Shown here piece after piece: positions 7,595-29,743 of a DNA stretch of 64,000 bases. Both the position numbers and the translations under genes were made by a program. Within the stretch, counting starts at the first letter, position 1. Each line of letters starts with the position of its first letter. The stretch is from Candidatus Hydrogenedentota bacterium (GTDB taxonomy: Bacteria; Hydrogenedentota; Hydrogenedentia; Hydrogenedentales; SLHB01). Location: assembly GCA_052033955.1 (NCBI GenBank), contig JBPOJD010000030.1:33679-97678 (forward strand), in the 5' to 3' direction. The notes beneath the pieces were generated by a model. The model saw only the letters and a program-made list of their open reading frames with translations, ran no database searches and was not told the origin of the DNA.

Positions 7595-7623
7595 TTGCCA
7601 AACGGCTCCAAACTTAGTATATT
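7595..7623 (+). promoter_or_regulatory. Sigma70-type promoter TTGCCA-N17-TATATT for the M23 peptidase gene.
   Basis: The hexamers and spacing are read directly from the sequence. The track ORF 'start' TTG at 7595 is the -35 box, and the real ATG is at 7631. Confidence 0.5.
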
Positions 7624-7630
7624 ACTAGTT

Positions 7631-8191
7631 ATGCGGTGCCAAGCGTTTGTTTCGGCTCCCCAACAGACGGATCGGGACGCCTCAGCTCACCGGCCTGTTC
7701 CGTCGGCCGATCGCCGATGCACGCTGGTATTGCTCGTGGCGCTCATTGTTGGTGGTTGCACCACCATCGGGGACAATGGGCGCCACACTTCTTCCAGTCC
7801 CCCGCAGGGATGGCCCTTGCCGCCCGCCTGCCGACAGGTGACCAGCGCATTCGGGCCGCGCGCCGCCGCAACCGGCGGCCCGAGCCGCCTGCACCAGGGC
7901 ATCGACATCGCGGCCCCAAAAGGGACTCCGGTCCACGCCACCGCGCCCGGCCGGGTGGTCTTCGCGGAGTCATGGGGAGCCTACGGCCGCATCGTGGTGC
8001 TGGATCACGGCAACGGCTACGAAACCCGCTACGCCCACCTGCACCGCATCTCGGCCAAGCCGGGCCGCACCGTGCGCCGCGGCGAGGAGCTTGGGAAGGT
8101 CGGCCGCACCGGGAACGCCACCGGCTACCATCTGCACTATGAAGTGCGTCATCAGGGGCAACCGCTCGACCCCGTGCGCTTTCTTGAGTGA
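7631..8191 (+). CDS. M23 family peptidoglycan metalloendopeptidase, lipoprotein.
   Basis: The C-terminal LytM/M23 domain is present ('GIDIAAPKGTPVHA...GYHLHYEV'). The N-terminal signal peptide has a lipobox-like 'IVGGC'. I moved the start to the ATG at 7631. Confidence 0.85.
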   Translation: MRCQAFVSAPQQTDRDASAHRPVPSADRRCTLVLLVALIVGGCTTIGDNGRHTSSSPPQGWPLPPACRQVTSAFGPRAAATGGPSRLHQGIDIAAPKGTPVHATAPGRVVFAESWGAYGRIVVLDHGNGYETRYAHLHRISAKPGRTVRRGEELGKVGRTGNATGYHLHYEVRHQGQPLDPVRFLE

Positions 8192-8208: not shown

Positions 8209-8238
8209 TTGTCAGAATCCGATTTATTTTGATACAAT
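8209..8238 (+). promoter_or_regulatory. Sigma70-type promoter TTGTCA-N18-TACAAT upstream of the sigma54 regulator gene.
   Basis: The elements sit in an AT-rich patch 40-70 bp upstream of the ATG at 8278. Confidence 0.45.
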
Positions 8239-8277: not shown

Positions 8278-9636
8278 ATGCACATTGACCGTCCATATCG
8301 AGTGTTGATAGCGAGCCCAGACGCGCCGTACGCGCGCGTGCTCGAAAACCACATCCAAATCGATGGGTACGAGACCGAGCGGGTGTCGGACGCGCCCGGG
8401 GTCCTGCGCCTGCTGGGGCGGCGCGCCTACGATGTGATTCTGCTGGACCTGCACCTGACCGAGGACGTGGACGTCCATCTCGTGTCCTATGCGCGGCGCA
8501 AGCTGCCCCAGGCGCAACTCATCCTGCTTTTCGACAGCCATCAGGTGGACCGGGCGATCGAGGGGCTGCGGCAGGGGGCCTACTTCTACCTTCCCAAGAG
8601 CTGCCAGCCGTCAGACGTGGCACTGGTGGTCAACAAGGCGATGCGGACGCTCCAGGCCCAGGCACGGATCAGCCAGTACGAACAGACCCTCTTCGAGGAG
8701 ATGGCCGGGAGCACCCCGGCGATGAAGCGGGTCATCGAGCTGATCACGAAGGTCGCCCCAACCGACAGCACGGTGCTGCTGCTCGGCGAGAGCGGCACCG
8801 GCAAGGAGGTGGTGGCCAACACCCTCCACCGCCTCAGCAACCGGCGCGACCAGCCGTTCATCGCGATCAACTGCGCCGCGCTGCCCGAGCAATTGCTCGA
8901 GAGCGAGATGTTCGGGCACGTCAAGGGGGCCTTTACCGGCGCGGACAGCGACAAGCGGGGTCTGTTCGAGGAAGCCGACGGCGGCACGATCTTCTTGGAC
9001 GAGATCGGAGACATGTCGCCGCTCACCCAGTCCAAGCTGCTCCGGGTGCTCCAGAGCGGCGAAACCCGGCGGGTCGGCTCGAACGCGCCCCAGCGCGTGG
9101 ACGTACGGGTCGTCGCGGCCACCAACGTGGACCTGGTCGAAGCGGTGCAGGCGAAGCGATTCCGTGAGGACCTGTATTTCCGGCTCAACGTCATCCAGAT
9201 CCGCATCCCGCCGCTGCGCGAGCGCATGGACGCCCTCCCGATGCTGGTCAACCACTTTCTCCAGCGCTACAACACCAAATATGGAAAGACGATACGCGGC
9301 GTGGATCCCCACGCCCAGGTTCTGCTCCGCACCTACACCTACCCGGGCAACGTGCGGGAACTGGAGAGCATCATCGCCCACGCGGTCATCATGAACGACG
9401 GCGACGAGATCCGGGCGCAGGACCTGCCCGACCACGTCCGTTTTGGAACTGGGCCGCAGCTTGCGCTGCCGGATTACGCCTCCGAGGCCCTTCCGACGCT
9501 GTCGGAGATGGAGGCCCGGCTCATCCGGACGGCCCTCGAGCGCCTGGACGGCAACCAGACCGAGGCGGCGCGGCAACTGGGCATTTCCCGGTCTACCTTG
9601 TGGCGAAAAATCAAGGAATACGATATAACCCAATAG
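8278..9636 (+). CDS. Sigma54-dependent response regulator (NtrC family): receiver domain, AAA+ sigma54 activator domain and Fis-type HTH.
   Basis: The receiver domain has the Asp in 'ILLDLHL'. The AAA+ domain has the Walker A 'GESGTGKE', the GAFTGA loop ('GAFTGA') and 'ESELFGH'. The C-terminal HTH is 'QTEAARQLGISRSTLWRKIKEY'. Confidence 0.92.
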   Translation: MHIDRPYRVLIASPDAPYARVLENHIQIDGYETERVSDAPGVLRLLGRRAYDVILLDLHLTEDVDVHLVSYARRKLPQAQLILLFDSHQVDRAIEGLRQGAYFYLPKSCQPSDVALVVNKAMRTLQAQARISQYEQTLFEEMAGSTPAMKRVIELITKVAPTDSTVLLLGESGTGKEVVANTLHRLSNRRDQPFIAINCAALPEQLLESEMFGHVKGAFTGADSDKRGLFEEADGGTIFLDEIGDMSPLTQSKLLRVLQSGETRRVGSNAPQRVDVRVVAATNVDLVEAVQAKRFREDLYFRLNVIQIRIPPLRERMDALPMLVNHFLQRYNTKYGKTIRGVDPHAQVLLRTYTYPGNVRELESIIAHAVIMNDGDEIRAQDLPDHVRFGTGPQLALPDYASEALPTLSEMEARLIRTALERLDGNQTEAARQLGISRSTLWRKIKEYDITQ

Positions 9637-9684
9637 GCACGGATCGAGACACGGCGCGAGGCCGCCCTGAAAGGACACACACCG

Positions 9685-11037
9685 TTGACGCCGGAAAACC
9701 ACCCGCTCAAAGGCGCGCAGGGAGCGCAGCATATCGGCCACCTCCTGGTGGAGGACGGCCTGATCAGCCAGGACGGGCTCGATCGGGCGCTGGCGGCGCA
9801 GAAGCAGCATCAGGGCAACCTGGTGGACATCCTGATCGCCCAAGGTGCGGTCGATTACCGGACCTTCGCCCAGTTCCTTTCCCGCCAGAAGCGCCAGGCC
9901 AGCATCGAGCTGTCCCGCTACGAACTGCGCCCGGAGGTCATTGCCCTCGTGCCGTCCGCGTTCGCGTTGCAGCACGAAGTCGTGCCGATCGACCGGCTGG
10001 GCAATCTGCTCACCGTCGGCGCCGTCCGCCCGCTGAGTGCCGGCGTCGAGGAGGAGCTGAAGAACCTGACGGACCTGAGCGTCAAGACCCTGTTGTGCGC
10101 GCCGGGCGACGTCCGGAGCGTGATCAAGCGCTACTATGGGGGCGGGGACGCGGTTCCGGCGGCGCGGGCGGACGCCGAGACGGCCGATCTCGAGAGTCCG
10201 CTGCGGTTGGGCGGTGTAGCCCAGTTGCTCCGGCGGCTGGACAGCCTGCCGACCCTGCCCACCACGGTGCAGCGTGTGCGCGAGATGCTTGACGACCCCG
10301 CGGCGGGCGCCGGCGACGTGGCCCGGGTCATCTCGAACGACCCGCCGATCGCCGCCAGACTGCTCAGCGTGGCGAACTCCGCCGCCTACGGCCTGCGCCA
10401 CCACGTCGACACGGTCGGCCTCGCGGTAACCGTGCTGGGACTCAAGGAGACCTACGGACTGGTGCTGTGCACCTCCGTGATTGACCTGCTTCGCGGCAAC
10501 ACGGTCTTCGACTACCGGTCCTTCTGGTTCGAATCGGTGTGTTGCGCCAACATCGCGACCGCCATCGCCCGGCGCTATGCCCGGGAGAAACGGTCCGGGA
10601 TCTTCTCGGCCGGGCTCCTGCACGACATTGGCCGGCTCGCGTTGAGCCAGGTCGCGCCCGAGCACTACGGCCAGATCGACCGTGAACTGCGTGGTCCCCG
10701 GCTCAGGCAGTGCGAGGAGGAGCGGATCGGCATTGCCCACACCGAGGCCGGGTACCAACTGGCCGTCCAGTGGGGCCTGCCGCCCGACATCGCCGAGGCG
10801 ATCCGGTTCCACCACGCCCCCGCGTTCGCCCAGGAGAACCGCGATCTGGTGGCCATGGTGGCGATTGCCGACGCGGTGGCCGTGTCGCAGCGGCCGGGCA
10901 GCGACGACAGACAACCCGATTTCGCGGCCTGCCGGGAGAGTCTGGAGGTGCTGGGCCTGAGCGAGGCAGACGTCATGGAGGTGCTGACGAAGGGCCCGGA
11001 CCACGACGCCGTGGACGTCTTTGTCTCGCCCAATTAG
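9685..11037 (+). CDS. MshEN (GspE/MshE N-terminal, c-di-GMP-binding type) domain fused to an HDOD domain.
   Basis: The N-terminus has two tandem MshEN-like motifs ('IGHLLVEDGLISQDGLDRALAAQ' and 'LVDILIAQGAVDYRTFAQFLSRQ'). The C-terminal ~280 aa match HDOD ('LPTLPTTVQRVREML...', 'GLLHDIGRLAL', 'IAHTEAGYQLAVQWGLP', 'AIRFHH'). Confidence 0.75.
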   Translation: MTPENHPLKGAQGAQHIGHLLVEDGLISQDGLDRALAAQKQHQGNLVDILIAQGAVDYRTFAQFLSRQKRQASIELSRYELRPEVIALVPSAFALQHEVVPIDRLGNLLTVGAVRPLSAGVEEELKNLTDLSVKTLLCAPGDVRSVIKRYYGGGDAVPAARADAETADLESPLRLGGVAQLLRRLDSLPTLPTTVQRVREMLDDPAAGAGDVARVISNDPPIAARLLSVANSAAYGLRHHVDTVGLAVTVLGLKETYGLVLCTSVIDLLRGNTVFDYRSFWFESVCCANIATAIARRYAREKRSGIFSAGLLHDIGRLALSQVAPEHYGQIDRELRGPRLRQCEEERIGIAHTEAGYQLAVQWGLPPDIAEAIRFHHAPAFAQENRDLVAMVAIADAVAVSQRPGSDDRQPDFAACRESLEVLGLSEADVMEVLTKGPDHDAVDVFVSPN

Positions 11038-11079
11038 AGCATGAACCGGGCCAGGCATCGTGTCGCACGGTTTCCGTAC

Positions 11080-11350
11080 GGGCGGGTTTGAAACCCGCCC
11101 CTACAAGACGAGATGCGCAACCCCGTGCCGACGCGTTACAAACCCGCCCCCGCAAAACGAGACGCGTGACCCCGTGCGGACGCGTTACAAACCCGCCCCC
11201 GCAAAACGAGACGCGTGACCCCGTGCCGACGGGCTGCAAACCCGCCCCCGCAAAATGTGACATGCGAACCCTGTAGGGGCGGGTTTCAAACCCGCCCCCG
11301 CGAGGCATAGGAAACCAATCACACATCCGGTTTCAAACCCGCCCCTGCAT
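11080..11350. repeat. Degenerate tandem repeat array of about six copies with a ~49-bp period, flanked by and containing GC-rich palindromes (GGGGCGGGTTT[G/C]AAACCCGCCCC).
   Basis: The core 'AAACCCGCCCC' recurs at 11091, 11140, 11189, 11238, 11288 and 11335. Copies 2 and 3 are nearly identical and the outer copies are diverged. The array lies in the convergent intergenic space between the 9685..11037 (+) gene and the 11369..12049 (-) gene. Confidence 0.8.
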
Positions 11351-11368: not shown

Positions 11369-12013
11369 TCAGGCGGGAGGCACGGCGGTTTCGATGCGGG
11401 TGGGCGACGCCTCGTTCGCGATCTGCTGGAGGTAGCGCAGGCACGCCTCGTCATCCCAACGCGCGCCGCTTTCATAGCGGAAGGCAATCCGGTCATCGGG
11501 CGTGAGGATGAAGGTCGTCGGGGTGCCACGGCCCTTGTACGCCTCGGGACGCGGCCCGGATGCCAGCAAGATGGGTACGGTCAGTCCCTGCTGTTCCACG
11601 ACGGCCCGGATTTCGGTCGTGAACGCCGCCATGTCCTCGTCCTTTTCCTTCTCGGCCACGCACCAGAAGACGACGTCCTCCTCCGCAGCCTTCTCGTAGA
11701 GGTCCTGGATGTGCGGCAGGGTCGCGATGCAGTAGGGACAGTGCGGATGCCAGAAAGTGAGAAAGACCGTCTGTCCCTGAAGCTGCCGCGCGGACACGGG
11801 CTCGCCCGTCTCCAGATCGGTGACGTCCCAGTCGTAGGCGGCGGGCGCATCGGGAAACGCCGGCGCCTTCAGGCGTGCCGCGGCGCGCTTGACAAGAAAC
11901 CGGTAACCGGTGTCCGTGCGGGTCATCCCGACCACCAGCAGCGCCTCCACGAACAGCACCAGCAGCATGCCGGCGACCAGGCCGCAAGCGAAGAGGAGTT
12001 TTGGGCGTTTCAT
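11369..12013 (-). CDS. TlpA/ResA-like membrane-anchored thioredoxin-fold protein with a CPYC active site.
   Basis: The active site reads 'WHPHCPYC', and the N-terminal TM/signal is 'MKRPKLLFACGLVAGMLLVLFV'. The track ORF extends to 12049 with an Arg-rich leader. A start at 12013 is more plausible. Confidence 0.7.
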   Translation of the reverse strand: MKRPKLLFACGLVAGMLLVLFVEALLVVGMTRTDTGYRFLVKRAAARLKAPAFPDAPAAYDWDVTDLETGEPVSARQLQGQTVFLTFWHPHCPYCIATLPHIQDLYEKAAEEDVVFWCVAEKEKDEDMAAFTTEIRAVVEQQGLTVPILLASGPRPEAYKGRGTPTTFILTPDDRIAFRYESGARWDDEACLRYLQQIANEASPTRIETAVPPA

Positions 12014-12089
12014 GGGAACCATTCTACGTCGCGCGCGGCGGCGGCGCAAGAAGCAGGCGCCGCCCCGCCCGCGTCATCCGGGTGCCCCG

Positions 12090-13265
12090 TCAGAACCGCA
12101 ACACCGCCCCGATCCCGTCCGCGCTGCGCGTAAGGTCCTCAGCGGCATCCTCCCGCATCTGCTCGACCATGCCGCCGCTCCGCGCGACCTCCTCGACCAG
12201 CCGCTCGATCAGGTCGTCGACGCCGCGCACCGCGCCCCCGCACTCCGGGCACTGGTCCGGCACGGCGGGTGACAGTCTGCCGCAGTCCGTGCATTCGGCG
12301 CCATTTGCCTCGAAACCCTCGGCGTACACGAGCGACTGGACGCGGTGCCCGGACACGGCCTCCACGGTCGGCGGCAGGCCAATGACCGCGTGATTGCGTT
12401 TGCGGGCCAAGGTGAGAAGCCGCTGCAACAGATCGCGTTCGGTGCTGCGCTCGTAGTCGCGGATGATGGGCCGCGTCGCGTCCAAGAGATCCTTGTCGGC
12501 AGCGGTCACGGCCATGGCAGTCGATCCGATGACGCGGTCGCGCATGCGGTCGCTCAAGAGCCGCTGCAATTCACTGGTGGTCTCGACCGGACCGGCAAGG
12601 ACGATGCGGCTGAACTCCTGACGCCGCCCGAAGTCGTCCATGATCTCCGCCACCCGCTTCAAATGTGAGCGCGCGTGCTCGTCGGCCTTGCGCTGTAACT
12701 GCATCTGGGACCACATCTGGTCCTTGCCCGACGCGTCGAAGCGTTTCACGTCGCCTTCGGCGGCGGTCTCCTCATACTCCTCAATTTCGTCGAACATGAC
12801 TGTGAACAGCCTCGCCTGGGCCCGGTCCGCGAGGATGATCCCGTAGCGCTCATGCTCGTCACGCGCCTCGATCAGGGGGCGCACATGGGGCCGGGCCGCC
12901 CAGCGCGCCGAGGTCTCGAGCGGCAACCGCAGGCTGCCGTGCCACTGGAACCCGTCGGAATGGTTGGCGACATAGAGGAGTGTGCGGCCCACCGGGCTGT
13001 AGCTCTTGACAAACTTCGTGCAGATCTCGGCGTCGCGGGCAAATTCCTTGCGTTCTGCGCCGCTCAGATCCTCCTCGATGCCGCGCAACACGTTGTGCAG
13101 CGCGACCTCAAAGCCCCGGTTCAGATTGGGGGCGTAGCCCTGGTTGACGTTCAGGTAGACCGTCAGTACGTGCGACCCCGCCGGGGCCGCGTAACCGAGC
13201 AGCCGCTTCAACTCGTCATCGGTTATCATGGGCATCTCCTGACATGGCTGTTGGTGTTGCGCCAC
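12090..13265 (-). CDS. eRF1/Pelota (Dom34)-like protein, a bacterial 'baeRF'-type, with an inserted C4 zinc ribbon; it has no GGQ motif.
   Basis: The central and C-terminal domains are collinear with eRF1 domains 2-3. 'IILADRAQARLFTV' matches eRF1 'FIVIDGSGALFGTL', 'RIVLAGPVETTSEL' matches 'GLVLAGSADFKTEL', and the C-terminal 'GIGAVLRF' matches 'GIGGILRY'. The GGQ position reads 'SGKDQ'. The insert is 'CTDCG-x10-CPECGG'. Confidence 0.75.
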   Translation of the reverse strand: MAQHQQPCQEMPMITDDELKRLLGYAAPAGSHVLTVYLNVNQGYAPNLNRGFEVALHNVLRGIEEDLSGAERKEFARDAEICTKFVKSYSPVGRTLLYVANHSDGFQWHGSLRLPLETSARWAARPHVRPLIEARDEHERYGIILADRAQARLFTVMFDEIEEYEETAAEGDVKRFDASGKDQMWSQMQLQRKADEHARSHLKRVAEIMDDFGRRQEFSRIVLAGPVETTSELQRLLSDRMRDRVIGSTAMAVTAADKDLLDATRPIIRDYERSTERDLLQRLLTLARKRNHAVIGLPPTVEAVSGHRVQSLVYAEGFEANGAECTDCGRLSPAVPDQCPECGGAVRGVDDLIERLVEEVARSGGMVEQMREDAAEDLTRSADGIGAVLRF

Positions 13266-17292: not shown

Positions 17293-18753
17293 ATGCTCGT
17301 GCTCGCAACCAGATCCGCGGTTTCCGTTATCGTGTTCGCCATTGTCCTGGGAGGATCCGGCTGTCACAGCACACCCTCCGCGCGGATCGTCGCGCCGGCT
17401 ACGCCTTTCGCGATACCCGAACCGCCCGAGACGACAGACGTTGCGTCGTCCGGCACGGCCGCCGTGCCGTCACAGGTCTCGTTGGCGCAAATCGTTGGCG
17501 CCCGCACGGCCCGGTCATCCAGCTGGCAGCGCAACGGCGGAAACCGGGACTTCGTCAACGTGGCCCCGGGCGCAACCGAGGTGCTGCTCGACACCGAGGG
17601 GCCGGGCATGGTGACGCACATCTACTTCACGCTGGTGGAACCGGACGTGCTGGATTTCCGCGACACGATACTCCGGATGTACTGGGATGGCGAGTCCACG
17701 CCGAGCGTCGAGGTGCCGCTGGGGGACTTCTTCTGCGTCAGCAACTGCAGGATACGCCACTTCAGCTCCGCGCTGGTGTCGGTCAATCCCGGCGGAGACG
17801 ACAAGATCGGCAACAGCGGCTACTCGTGCTACTTCCCGATGCCATTTGGCACCCATGCCCGCATCGAACTCGAAAACCAGAGTGACCGTTACCTCGGCGG
17901 CGGGTACGCGGGGCTCTGGTATCACGTCGAGTACGAGCGGTACGAGCAGCCGTTGCCGCCCGATCTGGGCCGTTTTCACGCGCAATACCGCCAGGAAACG
18001 CCCACGACGGCCGACGGGGACCCCTTTGCCCAGGAGCCGGCATTCAACCAGACCGGTGACGGGAACTTCGTCATGCTGGAGGCCGAGGGCAAGGGGCACG
18101 TGGTGGGTACGTTCCTGCAGATAGACAACCTTGCCCCGGGGTGGTACGGCGAAGGAGATGACATGATCTTCATCGATGATGATACCTGGCCGCCGTCACT
18201 CCATGGCACCGGGACCGAAGAAGTCTTTGCCGGCGGCCCGACGCCGGATGTGGAGTTCGCCGGACTGTACACGGGGTTTCTCATGGTTGAAAATGCGCAC
18301 CGCAAGGATTTCATGGGAACCAATGCCCTGTATCGGTGGTACGTGCCGGACCCCATTCGGTTTCAGAAGCGCGTCAAGATGACGATCGAACACGGCCACG
18401 CAAATCAGGCCGCGAACAACTACGCCAGTGTCACCTACTGGTACCAGCAGGAACCGCACGCGCCCTTTCCTGCACTTCCGGGCGTCGCGGAGCGTCGGCC
18501 CAATCTCCCGCAGTCCTTCTGGGAGGCGCACGACAGCGCGCAGCGCCTGTACCGGGAGTTTGTGCCGATTCGGCTCGACATGCTGTATGGCGACAAGGAA
18601 TTCGCGCGACACGAGTACCGGGCTGCCGACTACGCGGGCCGCTTTCTCAACGACGGCTGCGGCCTGATGCACATCCAGGACTACGACGGCGCCCGGCGCA
18701 TGTTCGACCGCGCCTGGGAGATCTGGACATCGAGGGAGCAATGGGCGCGGTAG
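17293..18753 (+). CDS. DUF2961/GH172-like lipoprotein, putative glycoside hydrolase.
   Basis: The lipoprotein signal is 'MLVLATRSAVSVIVFAIVLGGSGC'. The motifs 'ILRMYWDGESTPSVEVPLGDFF' and 'WYGEGDDMIFIDDDTWPPSLHGTGTEEVF' are, from memory, typical of DUF2961. The track start at 17236 is a GTG lying in the 5' UTR. Confidence 0.6.
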   Translation: MLVLATRSAVSVIVFAIVLGGSGCHSTPSARIVAPATPFAIPEPPETTDVASSGTAAVPSQVSLAQIVGARTARSSSWQRNGGNRDFVNVAPGATEVLLDTEGPGMVTHIYFTLVEPDVLDFRDTILRMYWDGESTPSVEVPLGDFFCVSNCRIRHFSSALVSVNPGGDDKIGNSGYSCYFPMPFGTHARIELENQSDRYLGGGYAGLWYHVEYERYEQPLPPDLGRFHAQYRQETPTTADGDPFAQEPAFNQTGDGNFVMLEAEGKGHVVGTFLQIDNLAPGWYGEGDDMIFIDDDTWPPSLHGTGTEEVFAGGPTPDVEFAGLYTGFLMVENAHRKDFMGTNALYRWYVPDPIRFQKRVKMTIEHGHANQAANNYASVTYWYQQEPHAPFPALPGVAERRPNLPQSFWEAHDSAQRLYREFVPIRLDMLYGDKEFARHEYRAADYAGRFLNDGCGLMHIQDYDGARRMFDRAWEIWTSREQWAR

Positions 18754-18778
18754 CGAGGGCACGCGCCGCCGGATCCCA

Positions 18779-18807
18779 TTGCAGCGCAACAGGGCGGGTG
18801 CTATAAT
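18779..18807 (+). promoter_or_regulatory. Sigma70-type promoter TTGCAG-N17-TATAAT upstream of yebC-ruvCAB.
   Basis: There is a perfect -10 and a good -35 about 50 bp upstream of the yebC ATG. Confidence 0.5.
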
Positions 18808-18855
18808 TCCGCTGTTATCGAAGCTCGAAACGTCTATACCGGGAGATTTTAGCGT

Positions 18856-19608
18856 ATGTCGGGTCATTCCAAGTGGAGTACCATCAAACGGAAGAAGGGC
18901 GCTGCGGACGCCAAGCGCGGGAAGATCTTCTCGCGGTTGGCGAAGGAAATCGCCATGGCGGCGAAGGCGGGCGGCGGCGATCCGGAGATGAACCCGAAGC
19001 TGCGCACGGTGCTGCTTGCCGCCAAGGGCCAGAACATGCCGAAGGAGAACGTCGATCGCGCGATCAAGCGCGGTACGGGCGAGCTTCCGGGGGTCAGTTA
19101 CGAGGAGAACCGGTATGAGGGCTACGGATCCGCCGGGGTGGCGCTGATCATCGACGTCCTCACCGACAATAAGAACCGCACGGTGGCGGAGATTCGCCAC
19201 CTTCTGGGCAAGCACAACGGCAGCCTGGCCGAGTCGGGCGCGGTGACGTGGAACTTCGAGCCCCGCGGCCGCATCGTCATCGACAAGGGCGTTGCGGGCG
19301 AGGAGGCGATGTTCGAGAAGGCCATCGAGGCGGGCGCGGAAGACGTGGACGCCGAGGGCGACGTGTATGTGGTCTATACGGCCCCGCAGGATGTGCATGC
19401 CGTGGCGGAGGCGTTTGCGGGCATGGGCATCGAGGCCCAGGAAATCGAGCTGATCATGCATCCGAAGACGACCATCAAGGTCGAGGGCAAGGAGGCGATC
19501 TCGCTGCTCAAGCTGATGGACGCGCTCGAGGAACACGACGACGTGCAGAACGTCTTCGCCAATTTCGACATCTCGGAAGAGGACATGGCGGCATTCGCGG
19601 CGGAGTAA
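18856..19608 (+). CDS. yebC: YebC/PmpR family DNA-binding transcriptional regulator.
   Basis: The N-terminus reads 'MSGHSKWSTIKRKKGAADAKRGKIFSRL'. The protein is 250 aa and sits in the conserved position upstream of ruvC. Confidence 0.92.
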   Translation: MSGHSKWSTIKRKKGAADAKRGKIFSRLAKEIAMAAKAGGGDPEMNPKLRTVLLAAKGQNMPKENVDRAIKRGTGELPGVSYEENRYEGYGSAGVALIIDVLTDNKNRTVAEIRHLLGKHNGSLAESGAVTWNFEPRGRIVIDKGVAGEEAMFEKAIEAGAEDVDAEGDVYVVYTAPQDVHAVAEAFAGMGIEAQEIELIMHPKTTIKVEGKEAISLLKLMDALEEHDDVQNVFANFDISEEDMAAFAAE

Positions 19609-19635
19609 ACCACCCCTGCGGGGCAGGATGGGCGG

Positions 19636-20124
19636 GTGCGGATACTTGGTTTTGATCCCGGCACGGCTACCACGGGCTACGGCGTCGTGGAAGGGCGGGG
19701 GAACCGGCTCACCTACATCGCCCACGGGGTCATCGCCACGCCACCGCACACCCACTTCGCGTTGCGCCTGAAGAGCATCCACGAACAGGCCAGCGAACTG
19801 CTGGCGGCCCACCGGCCCGACGCCGTTGCCATCGAGAAGTTGTTCTTCTCGCAGAACGTCACCACGGGCATTGCCGTGGCCCAGGCGCGCGGGGTCATCG
19901 CGGTCGCGGTGGCCATGGCGGGCATTCCCATCGCCGAGTTCAGCCCGCTGGAGGTGAAGAGCGCCGTGGTGGGCTACGGGAAGGCCACGAAACGCCAGGT
20001 GCAGGAAATGGTGAAGATCCTGCTCAATCTGGACGACATCCCCCGGCCCGACGATGCCGCGGACGCCCTCGGGCTGGCGATCTGCCAGTATCACACCGGG
20101 GCCGCCACGCTCTCCCAGCTCTAA
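19636..20124 (+). CDS. ruvC: Holliday junction resolvase RuvC.
   Basis: The N-terminus 'MRILGFDPGTATTGYGVV' is the RuvC catalytic fold. The protein is 162 aa. Confidence 0.93.
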   Translation: MRILGFDPGTATTGYGVVEGRGNRLTYIAHGVIATPPHTHFALRLKSIHEQASELLAAHRPDAVAIEKLFFSQNVTTGIAVAQARGVIAVAVAMAGIPIAEFSPLEVKSAVVGYGKATKRQVQEMVKILLNLDDIPRPDDAADALGLAICQYHTGAATLSQL

Positions 20125-20133
20125 GGAGGTCCG

Positions 20134-20736
20134 ATGTTTGCTTTCCTTCGGGGAACGGTCGCCGAAAAAGGCCCCAACCGCATCGTCCTCGATGTGGGCG
20201 GGGTCGGCTACGACCTGCGCGTATCCGACTCGACGCTGCGCCGCGTGCACACCGGCGAAGCGGCCCAGCTCGTCACCTTCTGTTATATCCGCGAAGACGC
20301 CTTCCAGATTTTCGGCTTCCTCAGCGAAGAAGAGAAGCTGCTGTTCACGGCGCTGCTGGGCATCAATCACGTGGGCCCCAAGGTGGCGCTCGCCATCCTC
20401 TCCGTGCTGAGTCCCGCGGCACTGGGCCAGGCCGTCATTCACAACGACGTGAACGCCTTTACCAAGGCGCCCGGTGTCGGCAAGAAGATGGCGCAGCGCG
20501 TCGTGCTCGAGATGAAGACCAAGCTCGGGCAGGACGCGGAACTCGAGGCGATTCTCGGGGAAGGCCCGGCCCAGGCAGACGGCGAAACCGACGATGTGGT
20601 CGAGGCGCTGTGTTCGCTCGGTTGCACCCAGGCCGAAGCCGTCAAGGCGGCTGCCGCGGCCCGCAAACAGGCCGGAGCCGACGCGCCGGACGAAGAGGTC
20701 GTGCGCGCGGCGTTGCGCTCGATGGCGAGGATCTAG
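20134..20736 (+). CDS. ruvA: Holliday junction branch migration protein RuvA.
   Basis: The protein reads 'MFAFLRGTV...[10 protein letters not shown]' and has HhH motifs ('[14 protein letters not shown]', '[15 protein letters not shown]'). Confidence 0.93.
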
Positions 20737-20740
20737 GCCC

Positions 20741-21763
20741 ATGGCACGCGAGGAAGTGATCAGTCCGGCGCCGGTCGACGACGACGGGACCTTTGACGAC
20801 CAGATCCGCCCGCAACGGCTCGAGGATTTCCCTGGGCAGGAGGCGCTGAAGGAAAAACTGCGGATCGCGATCGCGGCGGCGCGGCAGCGCCAGGAGCCGC
20901 TCGACCACCTGCTCATGTGCGGGCCGCCGGGGCTCGGCAAGACGACCCTCGCCCGCATCCTTGCCAACGAGATGGGCGTGGCGATGAAGGCCACCTCCGG
21001 CCCGGTGATCGAACGCCAAGCCGATCTGTCGGCGATCCTCACCAGCCTCGAGGCCTTCGACGTGCTGTTTATCGACGAGATTCACCGCCTCAATCGCGCC
21101 GTCGAGGAGACACTGTACTCCGCGATGGAGGATTTCGAGGTGGACATCATGCTCGGCAAAGGCCCCACGGCGCGGTCGATGAAGATCGGGCTCAAGCCCT
21201 TTACCCTGATCGGCGCGACCACGCGCGCTGGCCTGCTGACCCCGCCCCTGCGCGCCCGCTTCGGCGACATCTGCCGCTTCGACTTCTATTCGCCCGAGGA
21301 GTTGCAGTGCATCGTACTGCGCTCGGCCCGCATCCTCGACGTGCCCATCGAAGACGACGGCGGCCTCGAGATCGCCGCGCGGTCCCGCGGGACGGCCCGC
21401 ATCGCCAACCGGCTGCTGCGGCGCGTGCGCGACTTCGCCCAGGTCAAGGGGAACGGCGTGGTCACGCAGGACATGGCGGCAAAAGGGCTCAAACTCCTGC
21501 AGATCGATGAACTCGGCCTCGACGAGATGGACCGCGTCATCCTGCGCACGCTGATCGACAAATTCAACGGCGGTCCCGTCGGGCTGTCCTCGCTCGCCGT
21601 TGCCATCGGCGAAGAGCCGCAGACCCTCGAAGAGGTTCACGAGCCGTACCTGATCCAGATCGGCTTCATGAAACGCACCCCGCAAGGCCGCGTCGTCACC
21701 CCGAACGGCTACCGCCACTTCGGCGTACACCCCCCGCAGAGCGGCCAGCCGGGCTTGTTCTGA
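20741..21763 (+). CDS. ruvB: Holliday junction ATP-dependent DNA helicase RuvB.
   Basis: The Walker A is '[11 protein letters not shown]', with sensor and winged-helix C-terminal regions. I moved the start to the ATG at 20741, directly after the ruvA stop. Confidence 0.95.
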
Positions 21764-21840
21764 GGCTGGACGGAGTTTGACAGGTTCTGGCGCAGGGGCT
21801 AGAATTCAGCGGACGCAATGGGGACGGGGATGCCCGCGGT

Positions 21841-24009
21841 GTGCGCCGGAAGGAACGCAGGATGAAACAGTACAGTTTCGGGACGTTCTTGGTGGACGAT
21901 GCCAATCGGGCCGCCTTTGAAGCGTGCCGCAACGTGGCGGACCTGCAGGATGTCGACCCGATGCCCGTCGTCCTGGTCGCGGACAAGGGCTGCGGCAAGA
22001 CCCACCTTCTCTATTCCATCGTCAACCGCGTGCGCGCGACGTCCGCCGACACCGGGCTGGCCTACATCACCGCCGACAACTTTCATCCGCGTGTGCGCGC
22101 CCTCGTGTCGGACCCGGCGCCGCTCCAACAGGCGGCGACCGCCATCCTCATGGTCGATCAGCTCGATGCCTTCGCGGACTGTCTTGACGAACTGGAAGCG
22201 GTGGTCCGCGTCTTCCTGCACTATGGCCACCCGGTAATTGTTGCGTCGCGGACGCAACCGGAACGGCTGGAGCACCTGCCGGCGGGGCTTCGCGATGTGA
22301 TGCGCGGCGGCCAGACCATCGAGATCGCGTATCCGGACGCGGCGGCGCGCGCGGAAATCATTCACCGGCAGGTCTGTGAGGAACTTGAGGCGCGCATCCG
22401 GCAACAGGAAGAAGAACTGGCCGTGTTGCGCGCGGCCGCGCCCGGGCCGCCGGAAGGCGATGCGGAGCTGGCAGCGCTTCGCGCTGAACTCGATGACTCG
22501 AAGGCGCACAGCGAGGCAGTGCAGCACGAACTCGAGCATCTGCGGGCGGAACTGGCGTTGCAGACCGCCTCGGACAAGGAGGCCCGCTATCTGCGGGGCC
22601 GGTTGGAGGCCGCCGAGCATGAGGTCGAGCGGCTGCGTGCGGATCTGGCGCACCACGCCGAGCCGCCCGCGGACACCGACGAACGCGACGCGGAACTCGC
22701 CGCGCTGCGTGCGCAACTGAGCATGGCGCAGAATGCCGCGGAGGCGGCCAAGTCCGAACTGGAAGCGCTCCGCCATGAGGCGGACGACGCGCGCGCGGAA
22801 GCCGAGGAATTGTGGGCCGAACTCGAACGGATGCAGACCGTCGCGCCGGACCCGGAGGTCGAGGCGGCCCGTCAACAGGCCACAGAGGAATTGGCTGCCT
22901 TGCGCGTGGAGGCCGCGGCGCTTCGTGTGCGGCTGGCCGAGGCCGAAGCCGCCGCGGCGGCGCCGGATCCGCAGGTGGACATCCTGCGTACCCAGCTCGA
23001 ACAGGCCCGGCGCGAGGAAGCGCAGGCCTCGCGGGAGGCGGGCGAGATGCTGCGCCGGGTAACGGCGCTGTTGACGGATGTCGAAGCCAACGGTGTCGAG
23101 CTGGCGGACCTGCCGGAGGACTTGCGCGCCGGGTTTGAGCAGGTGGAAGCGCTCATCCGGCAAGGCGTGCGCGGCCGCAACCACGAGGAACTTGAAGCGG
23201 CCCGGGCCATGGCCAATGACGCGCTGGGGCGGCTCGAGGCGCTGCGGCGTCAGTTTGACGACGAGCGGCGCACGTTGAAGCAGTCCTACAACGAAGCTTT
23301 GGCCAACCTGGAGTCGCGTCTGCTCGACGCGGGCGATGCGCGCAAGGCGCTCGAGATCGAGCGCGATGAGGCCCGTCGGGACGCAGCCACGGTGCGTACT
23401 GCGCACGAGGCCCTGCAGGCCGAAACAGAGCGGCTGTCGCAGCAGCTCAAGGCGAGCCGCGACAAGATCGAGGCAACCCAGCGCGAGGCCGAGACCATGG
23501 CGGCGGCAGCCGAGGAAGAGAGCCGGGCAGCCGAACACCGCGTGGCCTCGCTGCAGGCCGATCTGGATTTCACGCGCGACAGTGGCCGCAATGTTGGGGC
23601 CGAGCTTGCCGCGCTGCAACGACGGTTGACCGAAGCGGCGTCGGTTGCGGCCGATCTCGGCCGGCGGCTGACCATCAGCATGCAGGGCCCGGTGGAGGTA
23701 CCGCGACCCGCGGTGGCGCCGCTGTCTGCGGAGACCAAGGACGCGGAGGCGGCCTTCTTTGGCGATGCCGCGAAGGAAGACGATTTCCCGCCATTTCCCG
23801 CAGGCTTTGCCGTAGCCGGGGACGACGGCTTCGGCGATGACGACGAAGACTGCATCGACCTCGAGCGTTTTGGCGTCACCCCCAACGAACAGGACCGTCT
23901 GTCGCAGCCCTTCACGCCACTGAATCCGCGGGACCTCGAAGTGCCGGTCTCCGGCAAGCCGCGCAAGACCGGGCGCCACCCTTTCCGGGGTGAGAGCGAA
24001 GCCATCTGA
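21841..24009 (+). CDS. DnaA/Hda-like AAA+ ATPase domain fused to a ~450-aa Ala/Glu/Arg/Leu-rich coiled-coil region and an acidic C-terminal tail.
   Basis: The N-terminal ~190 aa follow the DnaA domain III pattern ('FxxFxV...N..A', 'VLVADKGCGKTHLLYSI', 'ILMVDQLDAF', 'VIVASRTQPERL...L.SR'). No DnaA domain IV is present. The rest is heptad-like low complexity. The true start may be the MKQYSF at 21862. Confidence 0.65.
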   Translation: MRRKERRMKQYSFGTFLVDDANRAAFEACRNVADLQDVDPMPVVLVADKGCGKTHLLYSIVNRVRATSADTGLAYITADNFHPRVRALVSDPAPLQQAATAILMVDQLDAFADCLDELEAVVRVFLHYGHPVIVASRTQPERLEHLPAGLRDVMRGGQTIEIAYPDAAARAEIIHRQVCEELEARIRQQEEELAVLRAAAPGPPEGDAELAALRAELDDSKAHSEAVQHELEHLRAELALQTASDKEARYLRGRLEAAEHEVERLRADLAHHAEPPADTDERDAELAALRAQLSMAQNAAEAAKSELEALRHEADDARAEAEELWAELERMQTVAPDPEVEAARQQATEELAALRVEAAALRVRLAEAEAAAAAPDPQVDILRTQLEQARREEAQASREAGEMLRRVTALLTDVEANGVELADLPEDLRAGFEQVEALIRQGVRGRNHEELEAARAMANDALGRLEALRRQFDDERRTLKQSYNEALANLESRLLDAGDARKALEIERDEARRDAATVRTAHEALQAETERLSQQLKASRDKIEATQREAETMAAAAEEESRAAEHRVASLQADLDFTRDSGRNVGAELAALQRRLTEAASVAADLGRRLTISMQGPVEVPRPAVAPLSAETKDAEAAFFGDAAKEDDFPPFPAGFAVAGDDGFGDDDEDCIDLERFGVTPNEQDRLSQPFTPLNPRDLEVPVSGKPRKTGRHPFRGESEAI

Positions 24010-24583
24010 GGTGGCCGCGTTCGAAGACAGCGTCCTGGACCTGTTCGAGACCATCCACCCGCTTGACCGCATCCCGCGCGCGGGGTATGTCCTCCGCGGA
24101 GTGACCGATCCCGAAAGCGTGGCAGCGCACAGCCATTTCGTGGCGTTGCTGGCGCTGCTCGTGCTCGACGCACACCCTGGTCTGGCTGACCGCGACACGG
24201 TGCTCGGCATGGCCCTGTTGCACGACCTCCCGGAGGCCCTGCTGATGGATATCCCGATGCCCGTCGCCGATGCCCACCTCAAGGCGGCCAAGGTCGAGGC
24301 GGAGCTGTCCATTGGCAACCAAATGCTCGCGGCCTTTCCCGAGAAATACCGGCGATGGCTCGCCGAGCTGGCCGAAGCCGTGACGGTCGAGGCCCGGCTC
24401 GTGCGCGGGCTCGACAAGTTGCAGATGATGATCAAGATCGTCATGTACCAGCGTGAGCATCGCGGACGGCTCGATGAATTCTGGAGCAATCCGCGCAATT
24501 TCGACGATTTCGGCATCGAGCCCGTGTCGCGCCTCTTCGATGCCGTCTGCCAGCGCGCAGGCAAGACCCGCCCCGCAGCATGA
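23990..24583 (+). CDS. HD-domain phosphohydrolase, YfbR-like 5'-deoxynucleotidase family.
   Basis: The HD motifs are 'ESVAAHSHFVALLAL' and 'ALLHDLPEALLMDIPMP'. It overlaps the preceding gene's stop, or starts at the in-frame GTG around 24011, which suggests translational coupling. Confidence 0.75.
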   Translation: MRAKPSEVAAFEDSVLDLFETIHPLDRIPRAGYVLRGVTDPESVAAHSHFVALLALLVLDAHPGLADRDTVLGMALLHDLPEALLMDIPMPVADAHLKAAKVEAELSIGNQMLAAFPEKYRRWLAELAEAVTVEARLVRGLDKLQMMIKIVMYQREHRGRLDEFWSNPRNFDDFGIEPVSRLFDAVCQRAGKTRPAA

Positions 24584-24599
24584 GTTGGGAAACGCCAAG

Positions 24600-24623
24600 C
24601 GCCGCCGGATGACTCCGGCGGCG
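24600..24623. terminator. Perfect 10-bp-stem hairpin (CGCCGCCGGA-tgac-TCCGGCGGCG) between convergent genes; a candidate bidirectional terminator.
   Basis: The hairpin lies between the HD-hydrolase stop (24583, +) and the gspF stop (24648, -). Confidence 0.45.
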
Positions 24624-24647
24624 CCTGCTGGGGATCTTGTCTTTGGC

Positions 24648-25853
24648 CTATGCGCCTGCTGATGCGGCGATCTGTTCGATCATGCCCACCATCGGCACAA
24701 ACAGGGCCAGCGCGAGCAGCACGACGATGATGCCGATGAACAGCGTCAGGATCGGCTGCAGGGCATCGCCGAGGGTGTCCACCTGGATGGCGACTTCCTT
24801 CTCGTAGGTGGTGCCGATCTCGTCGGCGATCTCGTCCATCGAGCCGGCTTCTTCACCGGTCAGGAGCATGTCGGCCGCCACGGGCGGGACACTCTCCTGA
24901 TGGTGCCGCAGGGGCTCTTCGAGTCCTTCGCCGCGTTCGACCGAGTCGCGCATGTCCTGGATGGCGCGCACCATGGCCTGGTTGTGGACGGCGTTGCGCA
25001 CGAGGTCCAGCGAGGCCATCATGCTGAGGCCGCTGCGGAGCAGCAGGGCCAGCGTGCGGGTGAACTCGACCATCGCGTTCTTGCGGATGATATCGCCCAC
25101 CACGGGGATGCGGAGCTTGATCCGGTCCGCGTTCAGGCGGCGCAAGGGACTGCGCACGTACCAGAGCTTGTACAGGGCGATAAGCCCGATGATGAGCAGG
25201 GCGAAGAACCACCACCAGTGGCCGAGAAAGTTCGCGACGGCGATGAATCCGCGCGAGAAGGCCGGCAGTGGCACGTTGAGCTGCTTGAACAGTTCCTCGA
25301 ACTGCGGGATGACCCATTTCGTGATGAGCAGCACGACGGCGAACGAGGCCACCACGAGGATCACCGGGTAGAGCATCGCGCCCTGCACGCGCTTGCGGAG
25401 CAGTTCACGCTCCTCGCGGTATTCCACCAGGCGGCGGAGCACGGTGGTGAGGGTACCGCTCGCCTCGCTGGCCTTGATCAAGTTGACGAAGACCGGCGGG
25501 AAGTGGCGCGGGTGACGGTCGAAGGCCTGCCAGAGCGGGTTGCCCGACTCGACATAGTTCGAGACGTCCGTCGCCAGCGCGCGGATGCCGGCGTTGTGAC
25601 CGCGAAGCGCCAGGGTGTGCAGGGCCTTGAGCAGCGGCGTGCCCGCTTCGAGCAGCATGATCAGTTGCCGCAGGAAGACCGTGATGTCGTGGTGGCGCAC
25701 CGATCCGCGCCGGAGGAGGTCCCCCCATCGCGACGGCTGGGGCTGCTCGACCCGCGATTCCTCGACCCGCGCAACGGAGACCGCGCTCTTGCTGCGGGCG
25801 CTGCGGCGCACGCGCTTGGGGCCCTCGGCCGGTTTATCGGCATTCGTGGCCAT
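24648..25853 (-). CDS. Type II secretion / type IV pilus platform protein (GspF/PilC family).
   Basis: It has two T2SSF-type repeats and three TM segments, including 'LLEAGTPLLKAL' and 'MLLTGEEAGSMDEI'. Confidence 0.85.
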   Translation of the reverse strand: MATNADKPAEGPKRVRRSARSKSAVSVARVEESRVEQPQPSRWGDLLRRGSVRHHDITVFLRQLIMLLEAGTPLLKALHTLALRGHNAGIRALATDVSNYVESGNPLWQAFDRHPRHFPPVFVNLIKASEASGTLTTVLRRLVEYREERELLRKRVQGAMLYPVILVVASFAVVLLITKWVIPQFEELFKQLNVPLPAFSRGFIAVANFLGHWWWFFALLIIGLIALYKLWYVRSPLRRLNADRIKLRIPVVGDIIRKNAMVEFTRTLALLLRSGLSMMASLDLVRNAVHNQAMVRAIQDMRDSVERGEGLEEPLRHHQESVPPVAADMLLTGEEAGSMDEIADEIGTTYEKEVAIQVDTLGDALQPILTLFIGIIVVLLALALFVPMVGMIEQIAASAGA

Positions 25854-25945
25854 AGTGTCCTTCCTCCCTGACGAGTTGGCTGTATCGTCCCATTATCTGG
25901 CGTACCCGGTTCACGGCGCGCGCCGTTGGCCCACGCACGTCTGCT

Positions 25946-26869
25946 TCACTTGTCCTCTTCCGACCAGTACCGGATGTGCGGCGCGCCCGTGTCCGGGAAC
26001 AGCACTACCGCTTCGACCACCGCCGAGGCGGCCGCGTGCTGGTTATCCGCGGGGCCGTCCTCAACGAGTTGTGCCTCGCCCCGGAACCGGTAACAGCGCG
26101 ACGTGGTGGCCAAGGCCTCCGGCGGCAGGTTGAACTGCGTTACGTCGATGCCCGCGGCGACGGCCAATTCATCCACCGACGCGAAAGGCCGGGCCTCAAC
26201 GACCCGTTCGGCCCCGCCGGGCGGCATGGCCAGAAGGGCCGCCATGACCTCAGCGGGCGCGCTGTTGATGTTGAGGTAAGCCAGAGGCTGGTCCTGATCC
26301 TCGGCGGTGTGGACGGTGAGGAGGTCGAGCGGGGCGCGCGCAAACTGTTCGGGTGTCATGAGGCCGCGCGCAACGAGTTCGTCGAGTTCGACGAACCAGC
26401 GCCCACCGAAATCATTCTCGACACCGGGACGCGGCACGCTCTGCGTGATGGCGCGTGCCACGCCGCGGTCGACCCCCAGCAGCGCCTCGAGCAGCGGTCG
26501 CGTCGCATGGTTGAGGTTCACCTTCTGCGACTCATCCGTGATGGCAACGCGTGCCGTAATGCGGCGCGTGTCGTCCGCTACCAGGCCCTCGGGGGTCTGC
26601 ACGTAGACCGGCCAAGTGATTTCGGCGTTGTTGGGCGGCGTCTGGCCCGCTTGGAGGCGCGCGGCCACCTCGGCGATCGCCGCGGTGATCGCGCCCGCCG
26701 CGCCCTCGCCCGTACGTATCTCGCGGAGGACGAGGTCCGTGCGTGCGCTCTCGGTCGTCATGTAGCCAAGGTAGGCGGCGCCCAACAGCGAGAACACCAA
26801 GAGCAGGCCCAACGCCGTGAGCAGCGCTACCCCTGACTGGCGTGCCGAGATCTTCTGGTCGTGATGCAT
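25946..26869 (-). CDS. GspK-like minor pseudopilin.
   Basis: The N-terminal hydrophobic segment is 'QSGVALLTALGLLLVFSLLGAAYLG'. Size and placement after the other pseudopilins fit GspK. I moved the start to an internal Met at aa 26 of the track ORF, whose own start is a TTG. Confidence 0.55.
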   Translation of the reverse strand: MHHDQKISARQSGVALLTALGLLLVFSLLGAAYLGYMTTESARTDLVLREIRTGEGAAGAITAAIAEVAARLQAGQTPPNNAEITWPVYVQTPEGLVADDTRRITARVAITDESQKVNLNHATRPLLEALLGVDRGVARAITQSVPRPGVENDFGGRWFVELDELVARGLMTPEQFARAPLDLLTVHTAEDQDQPLAYLNINSAPAEVMAALLAMPPGGAERVVEARPFASVDELAVAAGIDVTQFNLPPEALATTSRCYRFRGEAQLVEDGPADNQHAAASAVVEAVVLFPDTGAPHIRYWSEEDK

Positions 26870-26879
26870 GCTTACCCCG

Positions 26880-28018: not shown

Positions 28019-28099
28019 GTGGCCCTCTCCTTCCTGGTCCGGTATCCCGCGCCAGCGGCGAAGACGGCGCGGGCTGTTAAAAGTGCGCTACTCCCGTTC

Positions 28100-28129
28100 A
28101 TCGTATCGTCAATTGTGGGAAAAAGTCAA
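28100..28129 (-). promoter_or_regulatory. Candidate sigma70-type promoter (TTGACT-N17/18-TACGAT) for the pseudopilin/gspF operon, with a direct repeat ACAATTGAC x2.
   Basis: The elements sit in an AT-rich patch 80-110 bp upstream of the first pseudopilin start on the minus strand. Confidence 0.35.
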
Positions 28130-28203
28130 TTGTTTCCGAGCGAAAGGAAATATCGTTGCGGACGGAGCGGCGGCGCAGAAACTGTGCTTACAGCCGCGCC
28201 GGG

Positions 28204-29652: not shown

Positions 29653-29743
29653 CTTAAGCCATTGCGCTATAAATGGTTAGGGCTGGCAAAACGCGAAGTA
29701 TAGCACGAGCGCCGCAGGCTGTCAACGCGAGCGTCCCGACGGG

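Follow-up and report, generated by a model that had tools for sequence, protein, structure and literature searches.

Several sigma54-dependent activators are set by a separate partner protein or by cyclic diguanosine monophosphate (c-di-GMP), as in NifL-NifA, PspA-PspF, FleN/FleQ and the c-di-GMP-binding FleQ/FlrA. MshEN is among the highest-affinity receptor domains for c-di-GMP, and HDOD is among the commonest bacterial signalling domains that lack a known mechanism. The MshEN architectures reported by Wang et al. 2016 (PMC5013675) include T2SSE, glycosyltransferase, REC, HD-GYP-REC, CheA, CheX, kinase and M23 partners. A fusion of MshEN with HDOD is missing from that list, and none is described in the two papers found to name both domains, although the component domains are known and their combination is auto-annotated in domain databases. 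Here we analyse a stretch of 64,000 nucleotides (nt) from a Candidatus Hydrogenedentota bacterium (contig JBPOJD010000030.1), hereafter the window. In it, a gene for just such a fusion (9685-11037, forward strand) directly follows the gene of a sigma54 enhancer-binding response regulator (8278-9636, forward strand). We propose, as a tentative explanation a little short of probable, that the MshEN-HDOD protein is transcribed together with this orphan activator and serves it as a sensing or modulating partner, and that its nucleotide binding is weak or non-canonical.

The gene pair and its protein family

The second gene starts at a TTG codon and encodes 450 amino acids (aa), with a complete MshEN domain at aa 16-155. 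This domain comprises a four-helix MshEN_N module (aa 16-68, nt 9730-9888), delimited by NCBIfam model NF053729 and family alignments and built of two 24-residue motifs with a five-residue spacer. It is followed by an alpha/beta subdomain of the MshEN_C or T2SSE_N1-like type (aa 74-155, nt 9904-10149), which carries a strongly conserved FPIDxLGxLLTVG...RYY. NF053729, named 'cyclic di-GMP-binding domain, MshE-related', aligns to aa 17-68 with 51.5 bits (cutoff 38), and Pfam MshEN, PF05157, covers the subdomain (1.3e-14, 54.4 bits against 23.1). In the secondary structure of the AlphaFold2 model, a long linker helix (aa 159-186, nt 10159-10242) then leads to an HDOD domain (PF08668; aa 188-379, nt 10246-10821; 5.6e-56, 189.6 bits against 22.9). 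The initial annotation, which had predicted this fusion from two tandem motif copies and suggested checking it with MshEN and HDOD models, is upheld on both counts; its motif peptides lie at aa 17-39 and aa 46-68.

Sequence and structure agree on this division. Matches in the PDB are to the N-termini of PilB, PilF and MshE for the N-terminal half, and to the HDOD proteins 3HC1 (phmmer, 5.8e-28), 3M1T, MmoQ and SadB-like proteins for the C-terminal half. The AlphaFold2 model, built on 94 homologues (pLDDT 89.5, pTM 0.77), was compared with known structures by Foldseek. It matches the HDOD structures 3M1T and 3HC1 with template-modelling (TM) scores of 0.75 and 0.67, target-normalised, and the MshEN structure 5HTL with a TM score of 0.51 normalised to 5HTL. 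For this open reading frame (ORF), the matches lie far beyond chance.

The first gene encodes a protein of 452 aa, identified with Pfam and NCBIfam models. It consists of an atypical receiver (aa 9-115, nt 8302-8622), an AAA+ sigma54-interaction domain with GAFTGA and Walker A motifs (aa 143-308, nt 8704-9201) and an HTH_8 domain (aa 408-448, nt 9499-9621). Pfam scores are high for Sigma54_activat (2.4e-73, 245.8 bits) and HTH_8 (60.2 bits), with AAA_lid_14 also matched, and low for Response_reg (35.8 bits against a cutoff of 30.2). An AAA+ domain with GAFTGA, a C-terminal Fis-type helix-turn-helix and an N-terminal receiver together make this an NtrC-type activator, as had been predicted. It cannot be given the name of an orthologue, because no NCBIfam equivalog cutoff is reached: the best scores, for NtrC (396, cutoff 559) and AtoC (392, cutoff 714), fall far short, and it is not identifiable as NtrC, AtoC, ZraR, FlbD or FleQ.

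Seven orthologues of the activator, one from each locus at which the gene pair occurs, were aligned. GAFTGA and Walker A are invariant, as is receiver residue D57, and K107 is present in six of the seven. The usual receiver Thr/Ser site is occupied by an invariant F85-D86, and the first acidic residue varies. A kinase gene was found beside the pair at none of the seven loci. Control of the activator independently of phosphorylation is possible.

The two genes are probably co-transcribed, because they lie on the same strand, are separated by only 48 bp (9637-9684, forward strand), have no promoter or terminator predicted inside that gap by our scan, and are preceded by a conserved extended -10 promoter. 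This candidate sigma70-type promoter (8209-8238, forward strand), TTGTCA-18-TACAAT with a TG extended -10, agrees with the consensus at 10 of 12 positions. L081 and L082 keep a TTGnnn...ATTTTGnTACAAT block in their orthologous intergenic regions, so that the promoter is conserved in three genomes. The gap itself contains a Shine-Dalgarno-like GAAAGGA. Adjacency is also kept across lineages, which supports the single operon suggested initially; both ORF boundaries and the gap are confirmed.

The MshEN-HDOD protein belongs to a family that appears confined to one candidate phylum, Hydrogenedentota. A search of 5.8 billion proteins, clustered at 90% identity, returned 109 clusters with the same MshEN plus HDOD annotation. 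All named ones are from Candidatus Hydrogenedentes/Hydrogenedentota and are labelled merely 'HDOD domain-containing protein'; member P0001 is 100% identical to the window protein. An exhaustive HMMER search of 1.84 billion representatives at 50% identity gave 697 matches at E <= 1e-30. Both the motif region and HDOD are present in 124 of the best 145 representatives, and the few that are named are again Hydrogenedentota. In a scan of GTDB species representatives, the nearest relatives outside the family are stand-alone HDOD or REC-HDOD proteins; the best candidates for the fusion in other phyla (L019, L043, L058 and L061) are of these types and were discarded. When the N-terminal 168 aa were the sole query, no match at E <= 1e-6 was returned, owing to the word index.

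Two variations within the family were seen in passing. P0147 (MDQ1256850.1, 620 aa) carries the NCBI label 'type pilus assembly protein PilB', which is likely a misannotation, presumably arising from its MshEN domain. Members P0042, P0082, P0104, P0106, P0108 and P0109, and many of the 50%-identity representatives, have an extra N-terminal ~50-110 aa with a zinc-ribbon-like CxxC...CxxC before the MshEN motif, which the window protein does not have.

At 7 of ~29 family loci, the gene next upstream, on the same strand, encodes an orthologous activator (62-91% identical), with gaps of ~26-230 bp between the paired genes. Besides the window (partner P0001), these loci are L081 (P0002), L082 (P0003), L083 (P0010), L164 (P0040), L166 (P0004) and L001. 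Their flanks vary, containing UvrB/RelA/M23, MurB or arylsulfotransferase/methyltransferase genes, and the pair itself is constant. Average-linkage clustering, from which L008 and L013 were left out because the wrong ORF had been picked, places six of the seven in the window's subclade or its sister subclade and L001 in the main clade.

From this linkage we infer a functional partnership, and suggest the following course for it. The two genes would be expressed as one transcription unit from their own sigma70-type promoter. The first would supply an orphan activator whose AAA+ and DNA-binding parts are intact, whose receiver is atypical and which has no adjacent kinase; the second would supply a cytoplasmic signalling protein of a Hydrogenedentota-specific family. 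MshEN holds the input position that REC holds in REC-HDOD regulators and is connected through the long helix to HDOD; this order of input domain and HDOD is supported by the closest HDOD relatives outside the family, which are REC-HDOD proteins. The MshEN-HDOD protein would then act on the activator by protein-protein contact, as an anti-activator or a co-activator. The T2SSE_N1 subdomain could provide the contact: its role in secretion ATPases is that of a protein-interaction surface, and the GspE-GspL and PilB-PilZ complexes in which it serves as a protein-binding module are among the Foldseek structural matches. The signal might be read by a metal pocket in HDOD, by a non-canonical nucleotide site in MshEN, or by both.

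The same protein-binding module would also suit a stand-alone adaptor or regulator with some other target, such as an adaptor for proteolysis of the SadB type or a regulator of motility or of the cell envelope, for which co-transcription with an activator in one subclade would be incidental. P. aeruginosa SadB, an N-terminal domain joined to HDOD, acts as an adaptor in AmrZ proteolysis without binding a ligand (PMC12075610). Most family members do not stand beside an activator, and they have no conserved neighbours; M23 peptidase or MurB genes recur near several of them. We nevertheless consider an independent adaptor unlikely, since the pair is kept at seven loci amid changing surroundings, including L001 outside the window's subclade, as is typical of functionally coupled genes, and no other sensory partner of the activator is encoded nearby.

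Of the envelope genes in question, those for M23 peptidases lie upstream of the activator in the window (7595-8191), L081 and L082; in L165 and L166 they lie downstream in convergent orientation. MurB genes lie upstream in L083 and L164. These genes may point to a link with the cell wall. Wang et al. 2016 (PMC5013675) list an MshEN_N-M23 fusion among their architectures.

The nucleotide motif and the probable metal site

The motif region of the window protein, H16 to Q68, aligns without gaps to R9-Q61 of Vibrio cholerae MshE (VcMshE) and to PilB sequences. It forms a unit of 53 residues, in which two 24-residue motifs, H16-Q39 and N45-Q68, flank the spacer KQHQG, of the same five-residue length. 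In motif I, the VcMshE residues R9, L10, G11, G18, L25, L29 and Q32 correspond to H16, I17, G18, G25, L32, L36 and Q39; in motif II, R38, L39, G40, G47, L54, L58 and Q61 correspond to N45, L46, V47, G54, F61, L65 and Q68. The protein thus fits the extended consensus at 12 of 14 positions, and both hydrophobic triads (I17, L32, L36 and L46, F61, L65) and both terminal glutamines are in place. Wang et al. 2016 (PMC5013675) have Arg at position 1 of each motif, with R/K/L in an extended and R/K/P/N in a relaxed version. N45 falls within the relaxed list and H16 outside every published one. Position 3 is Gly in motif I (G18) and Val in motif II (V47, nt 9823-9825), at the place of VcMshE Gly40.

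Position 1 tolerates substitution, and position 3 does not. The backbone amide of position 3 meets the Hoogsteen edge of guanine, and any side chain there clashes with the base (Wang et al. 2016, VcMshE G11 and G40). Substitution of VcMshE G40 by Ile weakens binding 72-fold, to a dissociation constant (Kd) of 36 uM, and abolishes the thermal shift, and G11L leaves no detectable binding of c-di-GMP. Natural variants point the same way: the third MshEN domain of Deinococcus PilB has the equivalent of G40E and does not bind c-di-GMP, nor does XpsE, with the equivalents of G11V and G40L. In PilF, GSPII-A has Ala at motif II position 3 and is the sole domain of that protein not to bind c-di-GMP, and GSPII-B has Lys and Leu at position 1 and still binds with a Kd of 6 nM (PMC11731258).

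The Val47-type substitution is, on the family alignments, a hallmark of the family and not a peculiarity of the window protein, because Val, Phe, Leu and other bulky residues dominate the counts. Motif II position 3 is Val in 82, Ile in 9 and Gly in 5 of 107 close relatives; among the 124 representatives at 50% identity it is V in 44, F in 31, L in 15, A in 8, W in 8, I in 7, C in 4 and G in 3. The motif I half-site is kept family-wide (G 90/98, Q 97, L 98). In the main clade, motif I, the Lys/Arg at motif II position 1 and the terminal Gln residues are strongly conserved; a whole sister clade is without the motif II Gln. The conservation in the main clade argues for some ligand or a constrained surface and against free decay. 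As an observation aside, Gly at motif II position 3, as 'K-L/T/I-G-E', occurs in the scattered members P0027, P0049, P0055, P0058, P0079, P0147, P0160 and P0249.

Our reading of these patterns is that motif I together with L46 would make one canonical guanine half-site, and that the other half-site would be filled or narrowed by the bulky V47. Since close contact with guanine requires the glycine that V47 replaces, canonical high-affinity binding of c-di-GMP by the window protein seems rather unlikely. Weak or altered binding, or the binding of a different nucleotide, is conceivable.

These data bear directly on the possibility that MshEN is a genuine high-affinity receptor relaying c-di-GMP levels to the adjacent activator. 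Such a role would account for the gapless register, for the 12 conserved positions, among them G18, Q39, Q68 and the hydrophobic clusters, and for the NF053729 score. It could also draw on the strong conservation in the main clade of the ligand-facing, non-structural Gln at position 24 and of the position-1 Arg/Lys, which suggests selection for some ligand. PilF GSPII-B can do without Arg at position 1, motif II position 3 is Gly in a few lineages, and HDOD frequently co-occurs with EAL domains. Yet V47 stands at the Gly40 position, where G40I costs 72-fold affinity and the G40E domain and XpsE (G40L) fail to bind, and the window domain departs, at H16 and at V47, from both halves of the relaxed motif with which Wang et al. 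searched. The best PDB sequence match of the N-terminus is GSPII-A, PilF's non-binder, and the motif II Gln is lost entirely from the sister clade.

Motif integrity among the seven activator-linked partners speaks against it as well. They retain 12, 11, 12, 12, 10, 8 and 13 of the 14 positions, with P0010 (10/14) and P0040 (8/14) the most decayed. As linkage persists where the motif has decayed, the partnership does not depend on an intact c-di-GMP site, which on these alignments argues against c-di-GMP sensing as its basis. We therefore doubt the receptor explanation and hold it to be unlikely. The initial annotation had named the protein a candidate c-di-GMP receptor, to be withdrawn if the residues that contact c-di-GMP in MshE were not conserved. 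The register and most positions stand and the contact residues at H16 and V47 do not, and we regard the label as premature.

The HDOD domain fared better than had been expected of it. It was initially described as degenerate and without a catalytic His-Asp, which is wrong: H313 and D314 are kept, along with four further putative metal ligands, E283, H352, H376 and H377. In the phmmer alignment to 3HC1, the six residues E283, H313, D314, H352, H376 and H377 lie opposite H122, H152, D153, H193, H217 and H218. The 3HC1 protein binds two iron ions; the ligands, five His and one Asp, are spread over four helices (PMC12075610), and we infer that the aligned residues of 3HC1 are these ligands. The window HDOD therefore, judging by this alignment, probably has a two-metal pocket with Glu in place of the first His. 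Among close relatives, H313, D314, H352, H376 and H377 are at least 90% conserved, and 86 of 107 have E, D or H at position 283.

A complete ligand set raises the prospect that HDOD is an active metal-dependent phosphohydrolase, acting for example on pGpG, c-di-GMP or another nucleotide that MshEN would recruit or sense, by analogy with the MshEN-HD-GYP fusion found in Myxococcus. The Pfam HD model (1.3e-9, 38.7 bits against a cutoff of 22) and TIGR00277 HDIG of NCBIfam (31.9 against 27.6) both score above their cutoffs, 3HC1 binds its two irons, and DVU0330, an HDOD protein that keeps the HD residues, has weak activity on bis-p-nitrophenyl phosphate, with none on c-di-GMP. Against this, hydrolysis of c-di-GMP or of any natural nucleotide has been shown for no HDOD protein, and GsmR, a REC-HDOD protein, is inactive. 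In the window protein the first His is Glu, and the ligand set is degenerate across much of the wider family. The GYP signature (HHExxDGxGYP) is absent from the window HDOD, which reads IRFHHAPAFAQ, and no HD-GYP-specific model matched. We consider catalysis improbable, the least likely of the roles discussed here. Membership of the HD-GYP c-di-GMP phosphodiesterases was rejected on the missing GYP motif; Bd1817 is a weak structural match only to the window protein model (E 0.04, Foldseek). For SadB, binding of c-di-GMP is reported in P. fluorescens.

Several observations weigh against the partnership with the activator that we prefer. At ~22 of the ~29 family loci, an adjacent activator is absent and the neighbourhood is not conserved, and the core function of the family therefore does not require this activator. 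Apart from the activator, no conserved neighbours of the family were found; the surrounding genes are unrelated metabolic genes or abundant paralogues of the DUF1559 pseudopilin-like type. The survey of adjacency to sigma54 activators called for initially thus gives a divided answer, and the proposal that a c-di-GMP receptor feeds sigma54 regulation finds its linkage recurrent but limited to part of the family. A scan of the window for sigma54 promoters (TGGCAC-N5-TTGC, up to two mismatches) gave 59 matches against 73 expected, none perfect, and no convincing match near the locus (8278-11037). As to the signal, the two terminal glutamines, the 12 matching motif positions and the NF053729 score make real c-di-GMP binding possible, all the more as position-1 substitutions are tolerated in PilF GSPII-B (PMC11731258). 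The metal ligand set is weaker in the wider family, where Arg stands at position 283 in 57 of 145 and ~40% have a residue other than His at position 377. The HDOD proteins assayed so far have shown no or weak hydrolase activity.

A more specific form of the partnership can be envisaged, in which a variant MshEN, with one canonical and one bulky-filled half-site, and a di-metal HDOD sense a non-canonical cue and control the orphan activator in trans. That cue could, for example, be a guanine nucleotide of asymmetric or linear form, or else a metal or redox signal. We think this decidedly unlikely as it stands. If true, it would amount to a new ligand specificity for MshEN, the first defined output for HDOD and a new second-messenger route into sigma54 transcription. 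The family is tractable for studying the role of HDOD, a second MshEN ligand specificity and signal input to a kinase-less orphan sigma54 activator, because it combines a systematic change at the Gly40 position with a conserved probable metal site and, in one clade, a tie to the activator. It also carries a caution: calls of c-di-GMP receptors on MshEN by motif or hidden Markov model, NF053729 included, can pass proteins that lack a binding-critical residue.

Further features of the window

Directly downstream of the MshEN-HDOD gene, in the convergent intergenic region, six tandem units of ~49 bp (11070-11350, no strand assigned) share the palindromic core GGGCGGGTTT(G/C)AAACCCGCCCC. The core has seven matches there against none expected, and occurs nowhere else in the window. 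The repeats may be a terminator or an element of the repetitive extragenic palindromic type at the end of the operon. A CRISPR array was ruled out, as the sequences between the cores themselves repeat, which makes this a tandem repeat.

The window is ~65% G+C, and a crude gene caller based on G+C content at third codon positions chose an antisense ORF of 815 aa (8611-11058, reverse strand) that runs across both genes of the pair. No domain matches support it, whereas the domain evidence for the two sense genes is overwhelming, and it was therefore rejected as a shadow ORF of high-GC DNA.

Beyond the repeats, on the reverse strand (11369-13265), a membrane-anchored AhpC/TSA-thioredoxin-like protein adjoins a bacterial eRF1-like protein; both are kept in the closest relative, L081. 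The eRF1-like protein belongs to baeRF_family10; its C-terminus is eRF1_3-like, and it has a zinc-ribbon-like CxxC segment. Further along, a type II secretion or type IV pilus-like set occupies 18196-29703 on the reverse strand and includes T2SSF (24648-25853), a T2SSK-like protein (25946-26944) and an actin-like protein of the PilM/HSP70 fold (28204-29652, reverse strand). Two ORFs of more than 900 aa each, at 18196-21042 and 21799-24564 on the reverse strand, gave no Pfam match at E <= 1e-6.

On the forward strand, a flagellin gene (38909-39727) directly follows the gene of a glycosyltransferase-2/TPR protein (37362-38765). Elsewhere, links to flagellar regulation are frequent for HDOD proteins and for sigma54 activators. 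In the window scan, no sigma54 promoter match was seen upstream on the forward strand.

Comparison with described systems

The closest structural counterpart of the N-terminal half is the MshEN domain of V. cholerae MshE (5HTL), together with those of NfrB and PilB. The window domain shares their fold, its two subdomains and the 53-residue motif in identical register, and conserves G18, G25, G54, Q39, Q68 and the Leu/Ile clusters. It differs in having Val47 for Gly40, His16 for Arg9 and Asn45 for Arg38, and in being joined to HDOD and not to a T2SSE ATPase or a glycosyltransferase.

In sequence, the nearest PDB entry to the N-terminal 168 aa is GSPII-A of Thermus thermophilus PilF (9G1W, 6F8L). 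In both, motif I is near-intact and position 3 of motif II is not Gly ('GGSLAEVLV' in PilF, 'GGKIVELLI' in the family). The PilF domain is part of a pilus ATPase, and its motif II is more degenerate, retaining 45% of key positions (PMC11731258). In overall architecture the nearest precedent is Myxococcus xanthus MXAN_2809 (MshEN-HD-GYP-REC-DUF4388; Wang et al. 2016 Suppl. Table 4), in which an N-terminal MshEN is likewise fused to a domain of the HD superfamily. The window HDOD lacks the GYP motif, and hence is not an HD-GYP.

For the C-terminal half, 3HC1 of Geobacter sulfurreducens offers the aligned ligand positions described above, from which the window protein departs by its Glu at the first His. 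In SadB, by contrast, most of the His ligands are missing, and the P. aeruginosa protein does not bind c-di-GMP (PMC12075610). These two, with 3M1T of Shewanella and the REC-HDOD regulators GsmR, DVU0330 and MmoQ, represent the HDOD fold that the window protein shares (target-normalised TM 0.67-0.75). REC-HDOD regulators also share the order of an input domain followed by HDOD, although the input of the window protein is MshEN and not REC or a YbaK-like domain.

As a regulatory arrangement, the pair would resemble the activators that are set by a separate partner, though NifL, PspA, FleN and the other partner proteins have no homology to the MshEN-HDOD protein, whose own partnership is read solely from gene linkage. 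In contrast to the partnership proposed for the window pair, FleQ and FlrA are activators that bind c-di-GMP themselves. The precedent for HDOD in a sigma54-activator gene cluster is MmoQ, an HDOD protein encoded near the activator MmoR.

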